A DNA stretch of 64,000 bases, taken from contig CANLTW010000001.1 of NCBI GenBank assembly GCA_947494155.1, positions 128,001-192,000 of the forward strand. The letters are read 5' to 3'. The position numbers were made by a program, and so were the translations under genes. Positions 12,166 through 22,905 of this stretch are shown piece after piece (position 1 is the first letter of the stretch; every line of letters begins with the position of its first letter). The notes beneath the pieces were generated by a model. It saw only the letters and a list, made by a program, of their open reading frames with translations, did no database searches and was not told where the DNA came from. This DNA comes from Chlamydiota bacterium. Lineage in GTDB: Bacteria > Chlamydiota > Chlamydiia > Chlamydiales > RGXB01.

Positions 12166-13143
12166 ATGGCATCAATAGGTTTAATCTACGGCAGCCGTTT
12201 TGAGGATATCGACCACATGGCTCCTTTAATGGAGATCTTAGGTCTCCCCTTATTTGTTACGGATGAAAAAATCTTGGAAATTATAAGGACTTTTTATCCT
12301 GCTGTCAATGTGCAAATCTACGCTCCTCCTCTCTTAGGCAAAGCCCTCCTTAAAGAGGGAAATACCCTCATCTCGTGCCTACTCACCACAAAAATTAGAC
12401 GCCTTTTTGGCCTTGAGGAGATGATGGAAAAAAGGGCTTTACATACCGTTTTTGTCCCTCACGGATATGCCCAAGAGGATCTTTCCAGGGGAATTTTGGG
12501 AGAAAAGCACATCCTTGTTCTGGGAAAAAAAATGGTGGATTTGCTCTATTCACTTACCACTATGTACAATTTTAAAACTCTTGTCAGCATCGGAAACTAT
12601 CGCTATCTGTATTTCAAAAAACACCAGACATTTATGGAAGAAAAGATCGAGCGCCCCTTTTCTTTTGCAAAAGAACACAAGGCTCTTTTTTTTCCAACAA
12701 ATCTGGAGGACCCTTCACACATCGCTTTTTTAAGGGATCATCTGAAAGAGGGTTGGAAACTGTTTGTTAAGTACCACGCAAAAACTTTCAATGATCTTTT
12801 CGATAGGGCGATCCATTCAGAGGAGAAATTAGACACCCCTTATGTCTACCCCTACTTAGAAAAAGGGTCTCTTTTTGTTGTTGAGGACTCTAATGCGGTT
12901 TACGATGCCCTATTCTTCAACACACCCACCTTTTTTTTCAAAGATCATCCAGAACTTGATACCCTGGGAATCCGATTTCAAGAGAATTTGGACAAGAGTT
13001 TGAAAAAAGTAGAAAATCTACAAATAAAGAAAAAAGAGATTCTCCCGTATGCATTTGATCAGTATAATTCTTTAGATGAGATCAAAATAAGAGTACTTGC
13101 TCTTTTAAAGGACATCAACGAAGGTGACGACACCATCTATTAG
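12166..13143 (+). CDS. CDP-glycerol glycerophosphotransferase (TagF/TagB)-like protein, divergent
   Basis: VFVPHG, IGNYRY, FVKYH and EDSNAVYDALFFNTP motifs; paralog of the next gene. Start placed at ATG 12166 because 12148 overlaps the mutY start. Confidence 0.55.
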   Translation: MASIGLIYGSRFEDIDHMAPLMEILGLPLFVTDEKILEIIRTFYPAVNVQIYAPPLLGKALLKEGNTLISCLLTTKIRRLFGLEEMMEKRALHTVFVPHGYAQEDLSRGILGEKHILVLGKKMVDLLYSLTTMYNFKTLVSIGNYRYLYFKKHQTFMEEKIERPFSFAKEHKALFFPTNLEDPSHIAFLRDHLKEGWKLFVKYHAKTFNDLFDRAIHSEEKLDTPYVYPYLEKGSLFVVEDSNAVYDALFFNTPTFFFKDHPELDTLGIRFQENLDKSLKKVENLQIKKKEILPYAFDQYNSLDEIKIRVLALLKDINEGDDTIY

Positions 13144-13972
13144 GGGTATTCTAGCCTCTTTCCCCCACCACCTGGATCATTTAGCCCCCCTCTCTTTCTA
13201 CGAAAAGATCCCCCTTTTAGTGCGTAATAACGAAACTGAGGAGGCGCTCCTCGATTTTTACCCTTGGGTCCCCTACTATCGCCTAGAAAATTTCCCAAAA
13301 ATTCACGATCTGGACGCTTATATCAGCACCTCTACAAGCGAAACACCTTTGCGGGAGTTGCATCATGCGCTGTATGGTAAAAAACCCAAAATGGTCCGTT
13401 TTCACCACGGTTTCTCCGATAAATTTCAAGATTTTTCTCTTTATGACTCGGTGTTGTCTTATAAGGACTTCCCCAACCATCGACTCCGTTTCTATCATGA
13501 GTTTAAAAAAGAAATTTTTGAAAAAGCGAAACCTTTTTTACCAGTTCCTGAAACAGCTAAACCCCTTCTCGTAGCTTTAACCTGGGATTCGCCCAACATT
13601 GAAGAAAAATTAGTACAGCTTTGCCAGCACCCTTTCAAAAAGCGGTTTGTCTTTAGACTGCACCCCATTTTAGCCGAAAGAGAGCTTTTGCATATCCGAT
13701 TAGAGGCCAAATATTCTATCCAACTCCTTTCCCATACTTGCCCCTATATTTACCCTTTTTTGGAGCTACATAGCGGAGTTCTCACCGATAGGTCAAGCAT
13801 CGGATACGATACCCTCTATTTTCACAAGCCCCTTTTCGTAATGGATGAAGTCCCTTTAAAAAAATTCTCGTTTGATTCTATGGAGAATTGGGTAAAGGCC
13901 TGTGATCAAAATAGGGAATCACCCAACTTTCAACACGAGTACACTAAAATATTCGGCGCTTATCCCCATTGA
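13124..13972 (+). CDS. CDP-glycerol glycerophosphotransferase (TagF/TagB)-like protein
   Basis: RFHHGFSDK, ALTW, FRLHP and LTDRSSIGYDTLYFHKPLF match the HG / PTW / KLHP / ITDYSSVxFD pattern of this GT-B-fold family. Confidence 0.65.
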   Translation: MTTPSIRGILASFPHHLDHLAPLSFYEKIPLLVRNNETEEALLDFYPWVPYYRLENFPKIHDLDAYISTSTSETPLRELHHALYGKKPKMVRFHHGFSDKFQDFSLYDSVLSYKDFPNHRLRFYHEFKKEIFEKAKPFLPVPETAKPLLVALTWDSPNIEEKLVQLCQHPFKKRFVFRLHPILAERELLHIRLEAKYSIQLLSHTCPYIYPFLELHSGVLTDRSSIGYDTLYFHKPLFVMDEVPLKKFSFDSMENWVKACDQNRESPNFQHEYTKIFGAYPH

Positions 13973-14907
13973 GGGGGTAAAATCTGGACGTTATCCAGAT
14001 ATTGCAATTCATGGACCGAAGGGGTTGCCGAGAGCCCGTACGCGTATCCACCCTCTTTGAGAGGATCGATTTTTGTGACCACTCCCACATGTAGTCCTCT
14101 TGGAAAAATCCCATCTAAGCCCGTAGTGACCAGAAGGTCTCCCACCCGGATCAGGTGCTCTGTTCTTAAATCAAAGGGGCCACCCTCGCTATCTGCAAAA
14201 TCATAATTGAACCCGTAGCCACTTAAGGTGTCGTAAGCTACCCTCCAACCCGGATTTGCTACCCCTTGAATCACCCCTTTTGCTAAAAGCGCCCCCCTTA
14301 ATGGTCTCACCTTCTCCAATAAAACCTGAATCCAATCATTGGTGAGCTCTTTATGCTCCTGGTTTTTAAAGATCTCCTCCTCTTTTTCTAAAAGATTCTT
14401 AAGCTCATAAAGCCTCTCTTCAAGATAGATCCCTTTTTTCCCCCGGTCCACGCGCACAGCTATTTGTAATTTCGGGTCTGTAATTAGACGCACAAGGCTC
14501 TTTTTTTCTAGCACCTCCTCGATCACCCCCACTACCCCTTTACCTAAAACAACGGGGCTTTTTTTTGCGATGACTGTGGCCCCCAATCGTTTGTTATCCG
14601 CCTCTCCCCTGTCTACCCAAAGAAAGGAGCCGAAAGAGATATTTTCCCTAAAGATCACTTTAGCCTGTATCGCATCCCAGTCTTTTAGGTCGTAGTTAAG
14701 CTGGTTGCGTATTGCATCCAACTCATCCTTCAAAAGAAGATTTTCCAAACTTAGTAGCTCAAGTGTACTATCTCCCCCCGCTTGTGCCGAGCTAAAAAAC
14801 TTTTGCACGCTCGATCTTAGGCGGATCTCTTTCACAAAAGGGATTTGAAAAATCAAAAATAGGATCAGAGACAAAAATAAGAGTGTAGAACCTAGTTTTT
14901 TATCCAT
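13960..14907 (-). CDS. mreC: Rod shape-determining protein MreC
   Basis: N-terminal TM, ENxxLK coiled coil, GVVGVI, SLVRLITDP and VGDLLVTTGLDGIFPRGLHVG. Confidence 0.9.
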   Translation of the reverse strand: MDKKLGSTLLFLSLILFLIFQIPFVKEIRLRSSVQKFFSSAQAGGDSTLELLSLENLLLKDELDAIRNQLNYDLKDWDAIQAKVIFRENISFGSFLWVDRGEADNKRLGATVIAKKSPVVLGKGVVGVIEEVLEKKSLVRLITDPKLQIAVRVDRGKKGIYLEERLYELKNLLEKEEEIFKNQEHKELTNDWIQVLLEKVRPLRGALLAKGVIQGVANPGWRVAYDTLSGYGFNYDFADSEGGPFDLRTEHLIRVGDLLVTTGLDGIFPRGLHVGVVTKIDPLKEGGYAYGLSATPSVHELQYLDNVQILPPQWG

Positions 14908-16078
14908 GACGCAACCTTGAAAAAACCTGTTTAAGCCGCCCGATGTTTGCCGAGTTTACCCCTAAAACATTTAATCTCGAGTCATCGAGCAAATATATGC
15001 TCTCTTTTCTCAACTCCAGAACCGCATCTTTAGATATTCCCAGATAGGAAAAAAACCCTTTCGCCTCTTGGAACTCTTTTTTATGCTGAATCCAGCCCCC
15101 AAATTCTTTCAGTATTAGCTCTCTCATGGCACAGCTTCTCAGCCGGTGCTCCTCGAGCTCATCAAGCCAAAGTTTTTTTCTTTTTAAATCTGTTAATACT
15201 GTTTTGACAACCAGTGCACCATGCGCCGGTGGACTAGAATAATTGCGACGTATGATCTGTTTTATAGTGCTTTGCATCCCCTCATGAGTATGACTCCGAT
15301 TGACAATCATCAGCGCCCCAACCCTTTCCCTATAGAGATCCATAGTTTTTGAATAGGAGAAGGCAACGCACATCTCGATCCCGCTTTTAAAAAAGGTGTT
15401 GACTGCATACCGGTCTTCATCGATTCCATCTCCAAGCCCTAGATAAGCGATATCAAAGAGAGGTAAAAGCCCCTTTTTGAGACAACAATCTAAAATTAAA
15501 TCCCATTCACTGTGGGTAAAATCGATCCCGGTGGGGTTATGGCAACAGCCATGAAGCAAAAGAATGGATCCTTTCTCCAAACGGTGTAAAAAATCAAAAA
15601 ACTCGCCCTTTTTGGCCGTGTGTGTTGTCCGATCATAGTAGGGATAGGTTCTCACCTCAAGACCTGCAGCTTTGAACACACCGTGGTGGTTAGCCCATGT
15701 GGGGTCCGAGACATAGATGGGATGATTCCACTCCAATCTAAGATAATCGGCAAGCACCCTTAGAGCACCAGTCCCCCCTAAAGTCTGTGCTGCTGTAACC
15801 AGAGGAGCATTTTCTAAGAAAAGGAGTTTTTTCGTCTCCTCAAGAAAGTCATGATCCCCCTCGATAGGAAGGTAAGTTTTGGAGACCTCATTCTCGATTA
15901 AAAATTCTTCAGCCTCCTTTACCGCTTTTAAAACGGGGCACTTCCCCTTTTCATCAAGATAGATACCCATTCCCAAATTTATTTTTTCAGAGTTAGGATC
16001 TTTGGCCCACATTCTGCCTATCTCAAGCACCGGATCGACAGGTTGTGATCCCACATGTTCAAAAAAAAGATGCGTCAT
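14900..16078 (-). CDS. aspC: Aspartate/aromatic amino-acid aminotransferase (class I)
   Basis: KINLGMGIY, QTLGGTGAL, LHGCCHNPTG, DIAYLG and PLP-lysine motif SYSKTMDLYRERVG. Confidence 0.92.
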   Translation of the reverse strand: MTHLFFEHVGSQPVDPVLEIGRMWAKDPNSEKINLGMGIYLDEKGKCPVLKAVKEAEEFLIENEVSKTYLPIEGDHDFLEETKKLLFLENAPLVTAAQTLGGTGALRVLADYLRLEWNHPIYVSDPTWANHHGVFKAAGLEVRTYPYYDRTTHTAKKGEFFDFLHRLEKGSILLLHGCCHNPTGIDFTHSEWDLILDCCLKKGLLPLFDIAYLGLGDGIDEDRYAVNTFFKSGIEMCVAFSYSKTMDLYRERVGALMIVNRSHTHEGMQSTIKQIIRRNYSSPPAHGALVVKTVLTDLKRKKLWLDELEEHRLRSCAMRELILKEFGGWIQHKKEFQEAKGFFSYLGISKDAVLELRKESIYLLDDSRLNVLGVNSANIGRLKQVFSRLRHG

Positions 16079-16192
16079 AGAGCCCCTGAATCAAAAAAAG
16101 TTTTTTAAACTATTATCTAAAAGTTCACGAATAGAGACAACTAGAAAAGTTGTTTATTGGCATGTATTCTTGGAAGTAAAGAAGGGATGAAA

Positions 16193-16265
16193 TGGAGTAT
16201 AGCGGACTCGAACCGCTGACCCCAACGCTGCCAGCGTTGGGGTCTACCAACTGAGCTAATACCCC
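16193..16265 (-). tRNA. tRNA-Ala(GGC), aberrant copy with disrupted D-stem (possible pseudo-tRNA)
   Basis: GGGGTATTAGCTCAGTTGGTAGACCCCAACGCTGGCAGCGTTGGGGTCAGCGGTTCGAGTCCGCTATACTCCA. It differs from the second copy at two positions (GACCCC vs GAGCAC), which breaks the D-stem. Confidence 0.75.
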
Positions 16266-16272
16266 GTCAGAC

Positions 16273-17940
16273 TTATTCCTTACCCTCAACAGCCTCAAGG
16301 AAAGCTTGTAGCTGCTTGGATCGGGTGGGATGACGCATTTTTCTCAAAGCTTTGGCCTCAATTTGGCGCACCCTTTCACGAGTTACCTTAAATTGCACAC
16401 CTACCTCTTCAAGAGTTTTCGGTTTTCCGTCAAGTAAACCGAAACGTTCGATTAATACTGTACGCTCTCTGTCAGTTAATGTAGAGAGAACTTCGTTTAT
16501 TTTGTCTTTTAAAATTGAATAGCCGGTGGCATCCGCTGGCGATTCTGTAGCGGTATCCTCAAGAAAATCACCAAATTGGCTCTCTCCGCTGTCTCCCACT
16601 TCTGCTTGTAAAGAGATGGGGTGTTGAGCGATACGATAAATCTCACGCACGCGATCAGGTGTCAACCCAAGCTCTTTTGCCAGCTCTTCTGGAGTAGGCT
16701 CTTTACCTGTCTCCATCATGAGCTTTTTGGCCCCCCTTAATACACGATTGATTGTTTCAATCATGTGCACAGGGATACGGATCGTGCGGGCCTGATCGGC
16801 AATAGCTCGTGTTACTGCTTGTCGAATCCACCAGGTGGCATAAGTAGAAAATTTATAACCTCGGCGGTATTCAAACTTTTCCACAGCCTTCATTAGCCCC
16901 ATGTTCCCCTCTTCAATCAAATCCAAGAAAGAAAGGCCACGGTTAGTGTATTTTTTTGCAATCGAGATCACAAGGCGCAGGTTGGACTCTACCATTTCTC
17001 TTTTAGCTTCCTGGCTCTTGTCCATCCAGCGCTGCAACATGCGGACATCTTTTTTATATTCGTCCAATGTCCTTCCGGCAGCAAGCTCTCTTAAAAAAAG
17101 TCGGCGTCTGGCAGAAAAAAGTTTTTGCGCTGCAAAGCGATTTTTTTCAGCTCTAGGGGTAAGATCTTTGATCTCTTTTTCCAAATGCAAAAGTCTGTCG
17201 TAGCTTGAGAGGATTACTTCGCCGAAATCTTCGATCACCGAATATTTCAGGTGCATGCGTCGCAAGTAGGCTTGAGTTCTTATACGACTTTTTTCTATCG
17301 CCTCGAGAACTTTGATCCTTTCTGCCTTGTTGTTATCCACCTTTTTCATTTTCAAAAGCTGCGGCTCTAAAAAAGCATCCTCTTTAGAAAGGAGCTCCTC
17401 TAGCTTAGGCAACAATTGCATGAACTTAGCGCGGTCTTCCACCTCTTTTTCAGCAGCAATTTTATCAAAACGTTCTTTACCAGCGATAAGGTAACGGATT
17501 ATGGAGCAAGTCTCCCTTTCGGAATAGCGAAAGCGCATAATGATTCTTTCGATCTGCATTTGCGCTTTTTCAATCCTTTTGGAAATTTCGACCTCTTCCT
17601 CGCGAGTAAGAAGGGGAAAAGAACCCATCTCTTTGAGATACATCCTAACGGGATCATCTGCAGCTGCATCGGAGCGTTTTGGTAAGAGTTCTAATTCTTT
17701 AGCCTCTTTTTTACGCTCTTTTTGCTTCTCAATCTCTGCTTGATTGTAGATCTGGATATCCATCCCACTCAAGAAAATCAATACTTGATCGATCTCTTCC
17801 GCCGTGTCAAATGTCATCGGAAGGATATCATTGATCTCTTCGTAGGTGATGAATCCCTGTTCCTTAGCAACAGCGACCAGCTCCTCGATTTTTTGCTGAT
17901 ATTGAGGATCCGTGTGTTGGTTGTCGGATGGCTTGCTCAT
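16273..17940 (-). CDS. rpoD: RNA polymerase primary sigma factor (sigma66/RpoD), derived copy
   Basis: Regions 1.1, 1.2 ([11 protein letters not shown]), 2 ([12 protein letters not shown]...[11 protein letters not shown]), 3 and 4 (TLEEVG...[15 protein letters not shown]) are all present. The SD AAAGGAG before ATG 17940 favours this start over 17973. Confidence 0.95.
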
Positions 17941-18053
17941 AGTCTCCTTTAGTGAAAAAAGGTTTTTTATCAACTACCTAGTCCAGTGACAATAGAGACA
18001 ACTAGAAAAGTTGTTTCTTTACGTGTGTTTTTAGAATTAAAGAAAGGATTAAA

Positions 18054-18126
18054 TGGAGTATAGCGGACTCGAACCGCTGACCCCAACGCTGCCAGCGTTG
18101 TGCTCTACCAACTGAGCTAATACCCC
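18054..18126 (-). tRNA. tRNA-Ala(GGC)
   Basis: Canonical cloverleaf: acceptor stem GGGGTAT/ATACTCC with G3:U70, D-stem GCTC/GAGC, anticodon arm CAACG-CTGGCAG-CGTTG, T-loop GTTCGA; CCA not encoded. Confidence 0.96.
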
Positions 18127-18133
18127 GTCAGAC

Positions 18134-19807
18134 TTATTCCTTCCCCTCAACAGCCTCAAGGAAAGCTTGTAGCTGCTTGGATCGGGTGGGATGACGCATT
18201 TTTCTCAAAGCTTTGGCCTCAATTTGGCGCACCCTTTCACGAGTTACCTTAAATTGCACACCTACCTCTTCGAGAGTTTTCGGTTTTCCGTCAAGTAAAC
18301 CGAAACGTTCGATTAATACTGTACGCTCTCTGTCAGTTAATGTCGAGAGAACTTCGTTCATTTTATCTTTTAGGATCGAATATCCTGTAGCATCTGCAGG
18401 GGACTCGGTAGCGGTATCCTCAAGGAAATCACCAAATTGACTCTCTCCGCTGTCTCCCACTTCTGCTTGCAAGGAGATCGGATGTTGAGCAATTCGATAA
18501 ATCTCACGCACCCTATCCGGAGTCAACCCAAGCTCTTTAGCAAGCTCCTCGGGCGTCGGCTCCTTACCTGTCTCCATCATGAGCTTTTTAGCGCCCCTTA
18601 ATACACGGTTGATAGTCTCAATCATGTGTACAGGGATACGGATCGTGCGAGCCTGATCGGCAATCGCTCGTGTTACTGCTTGTCGAATCCACCAGGTGGC
18701 ATAGGTAGAGAATTTATACCCGCGTCGGTATTCAAATTTTTCCACCGCCTTCATTAACCCCATGTTCCCCTCTTGGATCAGATCCAAGAAAGAAAGGCCA
18801 CGGTTCGTGTATTTTTTCGCAATCGAGATCACAAGGCGCAGGTTGGACTCTACCATCTCTCTTTTAGCTTCCTGGCTCTTGTCCATCCAGCGCTGCAACA
18901 TGCGGACATCTTTTTTATATTCGTCCAATGTCCTTCCGGCAGCAAGCTCTCTTAAAAATAGACGTCGTCTCGCCGAAAAAAGTTTTTGCGCTGCAAAGCG
19001 ATTTTTTTCTGCTCTTGGAATAAGATCTTTGATCTCTTTTTCCAAATGCAAAAGCCTGTCATAGCTTGAGAGGATTACTTCGCCGAAATCTTCAATTACC
19101 GAATATTTCAGGTGCATGCGTCGCAAGTAGGCTTGTGTTCTTATACGGCTTTTTTCTATCGCCTCAAGGACTTTGATCCTTTCAGCCTTATTATTTTCCA
19201 CCTCTTTCATTTTCAGAAGCTGCGGCTCTAAAAAAGCATCCTCTTTAGAAAGGAGCTCCTCTAGTTTAGGCAATAGTTGCATGAATTTGGCGCGGTCTTC
19301 CACCTCTTTTTCGGCAACAATTTTATCAAAGCGTTCTTTGCCGGAGATGAGATAACGGATGATTGAGCAGGTCTCTCTTTCAGAGTAACGGAAGCGCATG
19401 ATGATCCTTTCGATCTGCATTTGCGCTTTTTCGATCCTTTTGGAAATTTCGACCTCTTCTTCGCGAGTAAGAAGGGGGACAGAACCCATCTCTTTAAGAT
19501 ACATCCTAACGGGATCATCTGCAGCTGCATCAGAGCGTTTTGGCAAGAGTTCTAATTCTTTAGCCTCTTTTTTACGCTCTTTTTGCTTCTCAATCTCTGC
19601 TTGATTGTAGATCTGGATATCCATCCCACTTAAGAAAATCAATACTTGATCGATCTCTTCCGCAGTGTCAAATGTCATCGGAAGGATATCATTGATCTCT
19701 TCGTAGGTGATGAATCCCTGTTCCTTAGCAACAGCGACCAGCTCCTCGATTTTTTGCTGATATTGAGGATCCGTGTGTTGGTTTTCGGATGGTTTGCTCA
19801 TATTCAT
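18134..19807 (-). CDS. rpoD: RNA polymerase primary sigma factor (sigma66/RpoD), canonical copy
   Basis: All conserved regions present, including canonical MGSVPLL and DLIQEGN. The start could alternatively be ATG 19801. Confidence 0.96.
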
Positions 19808-19810
19808 GAT

Positions 19811-19839
19811 ATTGTTATATGAATATCACTTAATGTCAA
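19811..19839 (-). promoter_or_regulatory. Candidate sigma66 promoter of canonical rpoD
   Basis: Perfect TTGACA (19839-19834), 17 bp, then a weak -10 (AACAAT) only a few nt before the start codons; no SD visible. Confidence 0.4.
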
Positions 19840-19913
19840 GTTTTGAACAGTCCACCTCCGCTAGCCCTCATAAAAGAAAAAAAAGGGGGGAGCCTTCTGA
19901 CGCCCGTTTTCGT

Positions 19914-20345
19914 ATGGCCAAAAGCTCCTTGCATAGAGACATTCAGCTTTTTTTATGCAACTACTACTCCGGTGAAGATCTTTTAATGGAAAAAAAATTC
20001 CCCTCAATTAAAAGGACGGCAGACCTGGTTTTACTCAAACAAAAAAAGGTCTTTGAGGTGCAGACCTCTTTAATAGGGATTAAAGAGCTTTTAGAGCGCG
20101 AAAGGGATTACCGCTCACTAGGGTATGAAATTACCTGGCTCCTTTACGATAAAATTTTTTACTGTGAACCGCCGCTTCTAGTCACACGTGTTTTTTCTTC
20201 CAAAAACACCTATTATTTCTCGTTTCACAACGAGAAGCTCTTTTTATTTCGTAATCTAGACCTCGAGCCAGTCCCGGTCGATTTGTTTTTTCAACCCGAT
20301 CCATTTTACAAAAAATGTTTGCGATTTTTTAAAGGTTTTCTTTAG
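19914..20345 (+). CDS. CoiA-like PD-(D/E)XK nuclease-family protein
   Basis: SLHRDIQ...RTADLV...VFEVQTSLI...ERERDYRSLGYEITWLL follows the CoiA pattern. Start trimmed from 19773 to ATG 19914. Confidence 0.7.
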   Translation: MAKSSLHRDIQLFLCNYYSGEDLLMEKKFPSIKRTADLVLLKQKKVFEVQTSLIGIKELLERERDYRSLGYEITWLLYDKIFYCEPPLLVTRVFSSKNTYYFSFHNEKLFLFRNLDLEPVPVDLFFQPDPFYKKCLRFFKGFL

Positions 20346-20770
20346 CGGCTATCTTTGGTAAAAGAGAATCTATGCGAGTAGGCATACAACCAGATAAAAT
20401 AGATGCTGACGGCCAAAGCCAATCCAAAATGGACCAACTCTTTCATCGGAAAATATTTTTGCAGACTAAACGAGCTGTCATAGGAGTTTTTATACACCGT
20501 CCAGCTCTCTTTTCGCATTTCCTCCATCGCCTCTTGCGCAACGAATTCATTTAAAAATCTTTCTTTAAACCTGTAATCGACCTGTCTATCGCCAACTTGG
20601 AATGCAGCCTCTAAAAAAAAGGTCCCTTTAGGTCCGGGTTGGATATCAAAGTGGGCGATCTCCACTTGTTCAACCGGATACTGACAAGAATATTCAAAAA
20701 ATTTTATTACAAAATTTGCGCCTAAATAAAGATTACTTGCTAAAATAAGAAAAAATAGCCCCTGCCACAT
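20342..20770 (-). CDS. Hypothetical protein with two terminal TM segments
   Basis: 142 aa; hydrophobic N- and C-terminal helices flank a beta-rich region. Confidence 0.7.
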   Translation of the reverse strand: MWQGLFFLILASNLYLGANFVIKFFEYSCQYPVEQVEIAHFDIQPGPKGTFFLEAAFQVGDRQVDYRFKERFLNEFVAQEAMEEMRKESWTVYKNSYDSSFSLQKYFPMKELVHFGLALAVSIYFIWLYAYSHRFSFTKDSR

Positions 20771-20840
20771 GAAAATCCTTTATGCAAAACGACCACCCTG
20801 TTATAGTTGGAACAGTAGTTTTTAGGAAAGTACAATATCT

Positions 20841-21119
20841 ATGGCCGAAAAGAAACCAAAAGGTCCTCAAAAGCGTCCAAGCGCTCTCAAAAGAGACGAC
20901 CAAGCTGAAAAGCGCCGCTTGAGAAACAGATCCCGCAAAGCTCAAATCTTTACTGAACGCAAAAAATTAGAGGCGGCTTCTGCTGACAAAAAATCTGCTC
21001 AACTCAGTACTGTCGTAAGCCTTTTAGATAAAGCTGCGAAAAAAGGGACTATTCACCCAAACAAAGCCAGCCGTCTGAAGTCCCGTCTAGCGTTACGCAC
21101 AAATAAAGCTTTAGCTTAA
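20841..21119 (+). CDS. rpsT: 30S ribosomal protein S20
   Basis: SALKR..QAEKRRLRNRSRK and LDKAAKKGTIHPNKASRLKSRL. Confidence 0.96.
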   Translation: MAEKKPKGPQKRPSALKRDDQAEKRRLRNRSRKAQIFTERKKLEAASADKKSAQLSTVVSLLDKAAKKGTIHPNKASRLKSRLALRTNKALA

Positions 21120-21146
21120 GATCTTTTTTCAAAAAATTGATGGATC

Positions 21147-21177
21147 AAGGGGCCCTTAATGGGACCCCTTTTTTTTT
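21147..21177 (+). terminator. Rho-independent terminator after rpsT
   Basis: AAGGGGCCC-TTAAT-GGGACCCCTT stem-loop followed by a T run. Confidence 0.75.
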
Positions 21178-22905
21178 CTATCTCGCTACTACCCTGCTGG
21201 GAAGTTGAGGCAAGAAGGTCACCTCATACTTTTTCGACTCTAGTTTTTTATAGACTGCCCGAAGGATTTCGACATTGATTTTAAGATTCTGCATCAGCTT
21301 TCTAAAAAAGAGGCTCTCTTTGAAATCTTCAAGCGATTTGCGCGAGGTGAAAATCAAAAATGGGCATCTCTCCTCTTTCATGATCGCCAGCTGAAATTGA
21401 TCCAATGAATTTTTTGAAGTGTAGATGTGTACATTTGCAAATAGGTTCAAAAAATGGTCCACTATCCCTTTTTTCTCCTTTATAAAGTAGAAATGGATGT
21501 TGGGGCTATAGGTGGTTAATAGGGCCAAATCCATCCAGGTGCGCGGGATAAACATATACATCCGTTTGCGCATCGATTCCTCTAGTTCGGGCTCGACAAG
21601 ATCCACTCTGTATATCCGTCCGATTGTGGAGCGCAAAAGATAGTGCATGGATCTAGCGGACAATCGACTGAACACATAGGCAAAAAAGGCAAGGGTAACA
21701 AAAGCAATAAAGAAAAAGCCGGTTTTTGGACTGTCGAACAAGGAGATTGCTAAAGAGGCGATTGCTACCCCTAAAAAACTCAAGAAATTGGTTGCAGCAA
21801 CTACTTGCCCCCGCCTCTCCAAAGGGGTATTAGTCTGGTAGAAGGCATCAAACGGGACAATATACATCCCCCCCGTAAGCCCTAAAATAAAGAGACATAC
21901 AGCTGTAGACCAGTAAAACGGGATGATAGGCATCAAAAGTAGCGCCAGACCCGATATAAGCCCTGCAAGTGCCGATAGACCAATTTCGGCCTCTTTGCGC
22001 GACAATTTACCAGCAACCCAGCCCCCGATCGAAATCCCCACGGCGGCGGCCACAAACACATTCCCCCCATCCTCTTTCGTCAGCCCCAGCGATTCGATTG
22101 CATAGGGAACCATGTTCATTTGCACAAAAGCAGCCACAAATAAAAAGAAGGTTGAACCAAAAATTGAGGTGAGCAGAAAGGGGGTTTTTTGACAGAATTT
22201 CAGCGTCTCGTACACCTCTTTTACAAAGAAAGGGGAGGCTTTACAATCGTTGGCAACAGCAGGGGTTGGCCTCACACACAACGAGGCGAAACATCCTATC
22301 AAAGCAGCCCAGAGGCAAAAAGTCGATGCAAACGTGTAGTCCCCCCCTGAATAGGTAGACAATACCCCCCCCATCACCATCCCCACAATCACTGCAAGGT
22401 AAGTCGAAGCGGTGATTAACCCATTTGCTCTGGGAATCTCTTCTTTTGTCACCAATTCAGCTATGATGCTGTATTTGGGCGGCCCCATCAAGGCGGCTAC
22501 AACAGAGAGCATAAAAAGGAGTGCATAGCAGGCTAAAGCGCTTTGACAATAGAAAGCTAATATCCCCACTAATGTGACCACCACCTCGCCACACTTCAGG
22601 GCCGTCATGAATTTTTGTTTGCTAATTTTATCCGCAAGCTTTCCTGCAAAAGAGGAGAAAAGCAAAAACGGTAACACGTACACAATTCCCACCGTTGACA
22701 TGATTTCGGCAGACCCTTTGTCGCCCTGGATGGAGATTAACAAAAATATCGTTAAAAACTTAAAAAGGTTATCCACAAGAGCCGAGGTAAATTGGGAAAT
22801 ATTGTGAAACATCAAGGAATTTTTAAAAAAAGGGTTCCCCTCTCTGTAAAAAGAAAAATTTGAAAGATGGGCTCGTTGAAACGGAGTTTTCGATTTAATC
22901 CTCAT
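21178..22905 (-). CDS. MFS transporter, LplT/Aas-like lysophospholipid transporter with degenerate C-terminal domain
   Basis: QFTSALVDNLFK, LPFLLFSSFAGKLADKISK, GPPKYSIIAEL and RANGL motifs; about 12 TM. Start set at MRIKSK to avoid overlap with recC. Confidence 0.8.
   Translation of the reverse strand: MRIKSKTPFQRAHLSNFSFYREGNPFFKNSLMFHNISQFTSALVDNLFKFLTIFLLISIQGDKGSAEIMSTVGIVYVLPFLLFSSFAGKLADKISKQKFMTALKCGEVVVTLVGILAFYCQSALACYALLFMLSVVAALMGPPKYSIIAELVTKEEIPRANGLITASTYLAVIVGMVMGGVLSTYSGGDYTFASTFCLWAALIGCFASLCVRPTPAVANDCKASPFFVKEVYETLKFCQKTPFLLTSIFGSTFFLFVAAFVQMNMVPYAIESLGLTKEDGGNVFVAAAVGISIGGWVAGKLSRKEAEIGLSALAGLISGLALLLMPIIPFYWSTAVCLFILGLTGGMYIVPFDAFYQTNTPLERRGQVVAATNFLSFLGVAIASLAISLFDSPKTGFFFIAFVTLAFFAYVFSRLSARSMHYLLRSTIGRIYRVDLVEPELEESMRKRMYMFIPRTWMDLALLTTYSPNIHFYFIKEKKGIVDHFLNLFANVHIYTSKNSLDQFQLAIMKEERCPFLIFTSRKSLEDFKESLFFRKLMQNLKINVEILRAVYKKLESKKYEVTFLPQLPSRVVAR

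Follow-up and report, generated by a model that had tools for sequence, protein, structure and literature searches.

A tandem rpoD and tRNA-Ala duplication with a start-codon joint and an aspC-type leader in a chlamydia-like genome

The duplicated locus and its joint

The stretch of DNA analysed here (the window) is 64 kb of contig CANLTW010000001.1 from a Chlamydiota bacterium (assembly GCA_947494155.1), whose draft assembly amounts to 1.41 Mb in 24 contigs, with a completeness of 97.6% and a contamination estimate of 0.03%. The subject of this study is a locus on its minus strand that holds the gene for the primary sigma factor, rpoD, twice, in the order rpoD2, tRNA-Ala, spacer J, rpoD1, tRNA-Ala, spacer A and aspC (Table 1). 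Both sigma genes match the NCBIfam equivalog for the chlamydial primary sigma factor, NF004562 (PRK05901.1-4; 1043.5 bits for rpoD1 and 1053.2 bits for rpoD2, cut-off 779), and all five sigma-70 Pfam regions (r1_1, r1_2, r2, r3, and r4) are present in each of them. The aspC product exceeds the cut-off of NF006719 (aromatic amino acid transaminase; 425.1 bits, cut-off 377).

The segment made up of rpoD, the tRNA gene, and the spacer occurs twice in head-to-tail orientation, the period being 1861/1862 bp. Its tRNA and rpoD parts are 95% identical between the repeats, colinearity of the copies extends over spacer, tRNA, and rpoD, and only one new joint is present. On the plus strand, the joint reads gcTCATAg, the aspC start cgTCATAg, and the rpoD2 start gcTCATAt; TCATA is common to both parental ends and is retained once at the joint, and the CAT complementary to the rpoD1 start codon lies at 17938-17940. 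The conserved start of rpoD2 is at 19801, because an in-frame ATG at 19807 is ATA in two of the congeners (G001 and G003), and the joint therefore falls on the start codon. On the leader side, the match to the aspC leader of a related genome, G005, extends through the ATG, and on the rpoD side the matches start 4 nucleotides (nt) before the ATG. A G005-type aspC parent, which starts ATGGCG, would share TATG only. As read from the sequence, the notable feature of the locus is that both breakpoints fall on start codons, so that the open reading frame (ORF) was exchanged to the exact base.

Spacer J, which precedes rpoD1, is colinear from end to end with spacer A, the present leader of aspC, with 86 of 116 aligned columns identical. 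The identity amounts to 53/63 in the tRNA-proximal part and to 33/53 in the 50 nt adjoining the ATG. The score of this 50-nt leader alignment was reached by one of 5000 mononucleotide shuffles and, with the second stretch taken from 17942, by nine of 5000 dinucleotide shuffles and by 9 of 6808 GC-matched 49-mers of the window. No alignment was obtained between spacer J and the region upstream of rpoD2. The Shine-Dalgarno (SD) sequence is AAAGGAG before rpoD1 and CAGGGG before aspC, and none was seen before rpoD2. A preliminary description, made from the letters of the window, had claimed that the upstream region of rpoD1 resembles the aspC leader and not the canonical rpoD upstream region, that TCATA is shared by the two starts and the joint, and that the SDs differ in this way with none visible before the canonical rpoD; all of this was borne out, including the shuffle test, in which the leader alignment beats 4999 of 5000 mononucleotide shuffles. 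Of the microhomology-mediated fusion that it proposed, the tandem duplication and the joining of the ORF at the ATG, with 4-5 nt shared, hold, and the microhomology itself says little about mechanism.

The joint (17940/17941) is bridged by public DNA contigs in two runs from two studies. In run X1, the contig spans 17587-18080 with four differences, and in run X2 it spans 17893-18080 with none; one of them may be the source sample of the assembly, the other run being slightly different in sequence. The runs in which the stretch occurs come from lake and freshwater metagenomes. Among 41 related genomes, two rpoD matches at E<=1e-100 are found in the host assembly only, and a 331-nt query across the junction is contiguous only there and splits at the joint in six of six congeners. 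Since the copies differ at 6.8% of rpoD positions, the arrangement is not a collapsed or doubled identical repeat. A repeat search of 13000-22000 returned, besides the duplication, only two families of 30-32 nt with 64-75% identity; the ends of the segment carry neither a long repeat nor a mobile element. A mobile element at the tRNA gene was considered and rejected, as the duplication takes in the entire tRNA gene together with rpoD and accounts for the only repeats present at those ends. An exact scan with a 21-nt junction motif gave four matches in genome contigs and four in metagenome contigs, all of them chance matches in unrelated taxa, and none of the eight loci shows similarity to rpoD, the tRNA, or the leader; those two scans may have left out the window's own record.

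Table 1. Features of the duplicated locus, in window positions
Feature	Position	Strand	Basis or remark
aspC/tyrB-type aminotransferase gene, 392 aa	14900..16078	-	ORF and NF006719 match
Spacer A, present aspC leader	16079..16192	-	TTGTCT-17-GATAAT (16140..16112) and SD-like CAGGGG
tRNA-Ala(GGC) copy 1	16193..16265	-	ARAGORN; Rfam RF00005, 51.8 bits
rpoD1, 555 aa, copy behind the new joint	16273..17940	-	NF004562 match
Duplication joint TCATA	17937..17941		Same letters at aspC start (16075-16079) and rpoD2 start (19798-19802)
Spacer J, aspC-type leader preceding rpoD1	17941..18053	-	SD AAGGAG; -35 TTGTCT kept; -10 GGTAGT
tRNA-Ala(GGC) copy 2	18054..18126	-	ARAGORN; Rfam RF00005, 65.9 bits; congener-type sequence
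rpoD2	18134..19801	-	NF004562 match; upstream region genus-typical
Promoter-like TTGACA-17-AACAAT	19811..19839	-	Consensus scan only; ends 9 nt before rpoD2 ATG

Relatives of the leader and of the two sigma genes

In two related genomes, G005 and G006, the locus has a single-copy form in which rpoD is followed by tRNA-Ala, a spacer, and aspC. The last 50 nt of spacer J match the aspC leader of G005 at 44 of 50 positions, a score reached by none of 5000 shuffles, and the 23 nt preceding the rpoD1 ATG (CCTTTTTTCACTAAAGGAGACT) are exactly those of the G005 aspC leader, with AAAGGAG and its 3-nt spacing included. Spacer A is identical to the aspC leader of G006 at 113 of 114 positions. Because of the 23-nt identity with G005, the SD of rpoD1 is best regarded as a pre-existing allele of the aspC leader that was inherited. 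Under either of the two histories weighed below, the joint was evidently made from, or now carries, an aspC leader of G005 type. In G001-G004, approximately 0.8-1.1 kb of other sequence (another gene) separates tRNA-Ala from aspC, and the leaders are non-homologous. Direct adjacency of the tRNA gene and aspC is therefore specific to the group formed by the host, G005, and G006, and the aspC leader types could not be polarised.

The two sigma genes do not have the same closest relative. At the nucleotide level, rpoD1 is 94.2% identical to the rpoD of G005, 93.2% to rpoD2, and 92.0% to the rpoD of G006; rpoD2 is 95.6% identical to G006 and 91.7% to G005, and G005 and G006 are 89.9% identical to each other. 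Fifty-five informative sites unite rpoD1 with G005 against rpoD2 with G006, two unite rpoD1 with rpoD2, and six unite rpoD1 with G006. The 55 split sites fall between nt 270 and 1437, except one at 1659. For this core of the gene, a clade of rpoD1 and rpoD2 is rejected by the approximately unbiased (AU) test (p-AU 3.9e-6), and the outgroup-rooted maximum-likelihood (ML) tree joins rpoD1 with G005 (83/86). At the gene ends, it is rpoD1, rpoD2, and G006 that cluster (98/96), and a clade of rpoD1 and G005 is rejected (p 0.029). Synonymous divergence (dS) in the core is 0.256 between rpoD1 and G005, 0.314 between rpoD2 and G006, 0.536 between rpoD1 and rpoD2, 0.597 between rpoD2 and G005, and 0.910 between G006 and G005.

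The surroundings of the locus are 89.5% identical to G006 over 17,968 nt and 77-79% identical to G005 over about 22 kb. From approximately 15000 to 16400, the identity to G006 is 98-100% per 200-nt bin, over a background of 82-94% (about 89%). This patch takes in the greater part of aspC together with spacer A, tRNA copy 1, and the rpoD1 3' end, and it resembles a tract left by recent recombination between lineages. Judging by these affinities, the locus is a recombination mosaic. Our reading is that the rpoD1 core and the rpoD of G005 would share an ancestor more recent than that of the two species, whichever the direction of the exchange.

The promoter signals of the two spacers differ. At the -10 position, 17 nt after TTGTCT, spacer A, G005, and G006 have GATAAT, and spacer J has GGTAGT; as the other three all keep GATAAT, the captured copy has, by parsimony, lost its -10 match. 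A promoter consensus scan finds a match in spacer A (16140..16112) and none in spacer J, and neither spacer showed a terminator-like site on the minus strand. What was first described as promoter and leader capture thus stands for the leader, since aspC-leader DNA runs up to the ATG and rpoD1 is intact, but promoter capture is doubtful, given GGTAGT and the missing scan match. Read-through combined with SD capture appears more likely. In two RNA runs, X15 and X16, contigs cover rpoD2-type sequence, and one of them spans 18060-18397, that is, tRNA copy 2 and the rpoD2 3' end; no contig listed for these runs lies over 17923-18059.

In both spacers and in G006, a 26-nt block (AAACAACTTTTCTAGTTGTCTCTATT, minus strand; 16130-16155 and 17991-18016) is invariant, and G005 shares 25 of its 26 positions; the flanks of the block diverge. 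It contains the -35-like TTGTCT and a 6-bp hairpin, and the single G005 change breaks the stem, so that any constraint seems to be on the sequence. Leader folding beyond chance was not found in spacer J (z -1.14) or spacer A (z 0.28), and the only hairpin common to both spacers is a small ACAACT/AGTTGT stem. Upstream of rpoD2, approximately 60 nt (19802-19860, minus strand) are nearly identical in the six congeners, even where rpoD itself is only about 84% identical. The genus-typical rpoD leader may be very short or absent, as no SD is present and only 9 nt separate the end of the promoter-like -10 from the ATG.

Both rpoD copies are under purifying selection (omega between them 0.02). They differ at nine residues. 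Seven of the changes are peculiar to rpoD1 (F108, A162, K200, D202, T261, E343, and I481), rpoD2 has a single one of its own (E6), and the ninth is ambiguous. The change Q343E lies in Sigma70_r2 (316-386), at a position that is Q in 20 of 20 other sequences (rpoD2, six congeners, and 13 distant relatives) and that we take to be the region-2.2 glutamine to which a role in binding the core polymerase is ascribed in E. coli sigma factors. The tRNA genes differ as well: copy 1 has GACCCC in place of the GAGCAC found in copy 2 and in all six congeners. Of its two substitutions, one breaks a D-stem pair and the other lies next to that pair, and the Rfam score drops from 65.9 bits in copy 2 to 51.8 bits in copy 1, with the non-standard pair flagged. 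These two copies are the only tRNA-Ala genes in the host assembly; tRNA-Ala(UGC) was not found among the 34 tRNA genes called. The 16S rRNA was likewise not found in this assembly, the rRNA operon probably being unassembled. Both sigma genes are intact and constrained, but it is rpoD1 and tRNA copy 1 in which the copy-specific changes lie, as expected of the redundant members of a duplicated pair; relaxed constraint of the sort that goes with redundancy is thus apparent in the downstream unit (rpoD1 and tRNA copy 1).

Proposed history and alternatives

The explanation that we favour, and consider probable, combines a start-codon duplication, an inherited leader, transcription by read-through, and later recombination. 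As the sequence shows, a 1.86-kb unit of rpoD, tRNA-Ala(GGC), and the whole tRNA-to-aspC spacer was doubled, with its left breakpoint at the rpoD ATG and its right breakpoint at the aspC ATG. The resulting rpoD1 lost the genus-typical upstream region and took the position of aspC, 3 nt after the SD AAGGAG. The comparison with G005 shows that the captured leader was of G005 type, with its strong SD inherited and not evolved after capture. Afterwards, the -10 of the captured promoter-like site changed from GATAAT to GGTAGT. Transcripts of rpoD1 would arise mostly by read-through that starts at rpoD2 and crosses tRNA-Ala copy 2, with translation relying on the captured SD. Later recombination would have homogenised the 5' ends of both rpoD copies, and the stretch from aspC to the rpoD1 3' end would have been exchanged recently with the G006 lineage.

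A possible reason for a joint at the start codon is that a promoter-less rpoD copy would need an SD at the right distance, because the genus-typical rpoD upstream region is without an SD and its promoter-like -10 lies 9 nt from the ATG. However, an SD-like motif is found at only 225 of 876 crude ORF starts of the host, compared with 92 of 876 for a control position. Dependence on an SD is therefore not general in this genome, and a larger unit including the promoter would also be workable.

That count is one of several results that weigh against the favoured explanation. Three of the 4-5 microhomology bases are the ATG itself. The promoter scan yields six sites with 5.5 expected from shuffles, and the statements on promoters and read-through come from the consensus scan only. 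With regard to the history of the copies, a tree with G005 outside rpoD1, rpoD2, and G006 is not rejected (p-AU 0.154), and at the 55 split sites the outgroups agree with rpoD1 and G005 at 25, agree with rpoD2 and G006 at 16, and are ambiguous at 14. In addition, the comparison genomes are all drafts. That of G006, with a completeness of 79%, has contig breaks where rpoD starts, which makes its single-copy state uncertain.

The results on history lend some weight to an alternative that we hold to be rather unlikely, in which the duplication is old, having arisen in the ancestor of the host and G006 or earlier, with a G005-type leader and vertical descent. G006, and also G005 if the event was earlier, would then have lost a copy, and rpoD1 would keep ancestral states and contain no DNA of the G005 lineage. 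The clade of rpoD1, rpoD2, and G006 that the AU test leaves standing fits this history, as do the outgroup states: nine of the 25 sites with the rpoD1 and G005 state have it in all four outgroups, and two of the 16 have the rpoD2 and G006 state in all four. Two contigs of G006, C4 and C125 (loci L022 and L025), share exactly 55 nt at their ends, 7 nt of them within rpoD and 48 nt upstream of it, a sign that the assembly graph branches where rpoD starts. Moreover, the tRNA-proximal half of spacer J is closer to spacer A (53/63) than to G005 (44/65). On the other hand, vertical descent would need a twofold inequality of rates to give a core dS of 0.256 between rpoD1 and G005, 0.597 between rpoD2 and G005, and 0.910 between G006 and G005; in the flanks, G005 is less similar to the host than G006 is (78% against 89.5%), and the rooted ML tree places rpoD1 with G005.

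A more far-reaching reading of the locus, which we regard as improbable, would have the rpoD promoter of the genus abut the ATG, with a message that has little or no leader and no SD. A second copy devoid of a promoter could then be translated only if the joint fell precisely at the start codon and supplied an SD. This reading would make rpoD1 an SD-dependent sigma factor gene transcribed by read-through, with its own translational control, the Q343E change, and a core from another species. It would then be an emerging variant of the housekeeping sigma factor in lake populations of an obligate intracellular lineage.

The preliminary description had assumed a simpler course, in which the present aspC leader was copied in situ through microhomology and the ribosome-binding site was then strengthened by point mutations from CAGGGG to AAAGGAG. 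The homology of the two leaders and the TCATA shared at the joint agree with it, but we now consider it very improbable. The strengthening is refuted by the 23 nt before the rpoD1 ATG, which already stand, AAAGGAG included, in the aspC leader of G005. Spacer A, at 113/114 to G006 and inside the 98-100% patch, would be a recently exchanged or divergent allele, and the rpoD1 core is closer to the rpoD of G005 than to rpoD2.

Translation of rpoD1 from the in-frame TTG at 17973, with an N-terminal extension of 11 residues, would move the functional start away from the joint. The frame is indeed open from there (a 566-aa ORF), but the extension is simply an in-frame reading of the aspC leader, G005 has this stretch ahead of its aspC, and the corresponding frame of spacer A contains a TGA; the N-terminus MSKPS is common to rpoD2 and all six congeners, and AAGGAG stands 3 nt before the ATG with nothing comparable before the TTG. 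We give this start very little credence. The least credible alternative is an assembly artefact in which two strain variants of one locus were concatenated, as might be imagined for a metagenome-assembled 24-contig draft without rRNA whose holder runs are lake and freshwater metagenomes, since only 5 nt are common to the joint and either parent end (not enough for an assembler to join on), two runs from two studies contain independent contigs that span it, contamination is 0.03%, and tRNA copy 1 and rpoD1 carry copy-specific changes.

Significance and known systems

The locus offers a clean natural example of a tandem duplication that exchanges, to the exact base, all of the 5' control sequence of an essential gene. 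Moreover, it illustrates that one genome is insufficient for such readings: it was the sister species that showed the seemingly improved ribosome-binding site to be inherited and the locus to be a mosaic. A second, slightly altered primary sigma gene is unusual in a chlamydia-like genome of 1.4 Mb (one of 41 related genomes) and, if both copies are expressed, would provide a tractable case of early sigma factor divergence. In the library that was searched, no paper combines rpoD, tandem duplication, and Chlamydiae.

Compared with the chlamydial primary sigma factor (NF004562), both copies are of the same kind, but two copies occur in only 1 of 41 genomes and copy 1 differs by Q343E. Cyanobacteria and actinomycetes carry multiple group-1 and group-2 sigma-70 paralogues, which are old, dispersed, and clearly diverged. 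The genome described here resembles them in having more than one RpoD-like sigma factor. Unlike those paralogues, its copies are adjacent and 98% identical at the protein level, and one differs mainly in its 5' signals.

The closest parallel comes from E. coli, where one study (PMC6614815) describes, by experiment, promoter capture through spontaneous duplications and deletions at microhomologies of 3-12 bp; in their discussion, its authors also point to a long-term evolution experiment in which a silent citrate transporter gene gained a promoter by being duplicated. Like the duplications of that study, the present case has a head-to-tail duplication, a joint that puts an ORF behind foreign 5' signals, and a short microhomology. 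Unlike the E. coli case, the chlamydia-like locus is a natural variant found in at least two lake or freshwater samples and not one selected in the laboratory; it involves a housekeeping sigma gene, with a joint on two start codons that swaps the whole leader together with its SD, and the captured promoter-like site looks decayed rather than used. The locus is a natural member of the known kind of duplication and capture at microhomologies.

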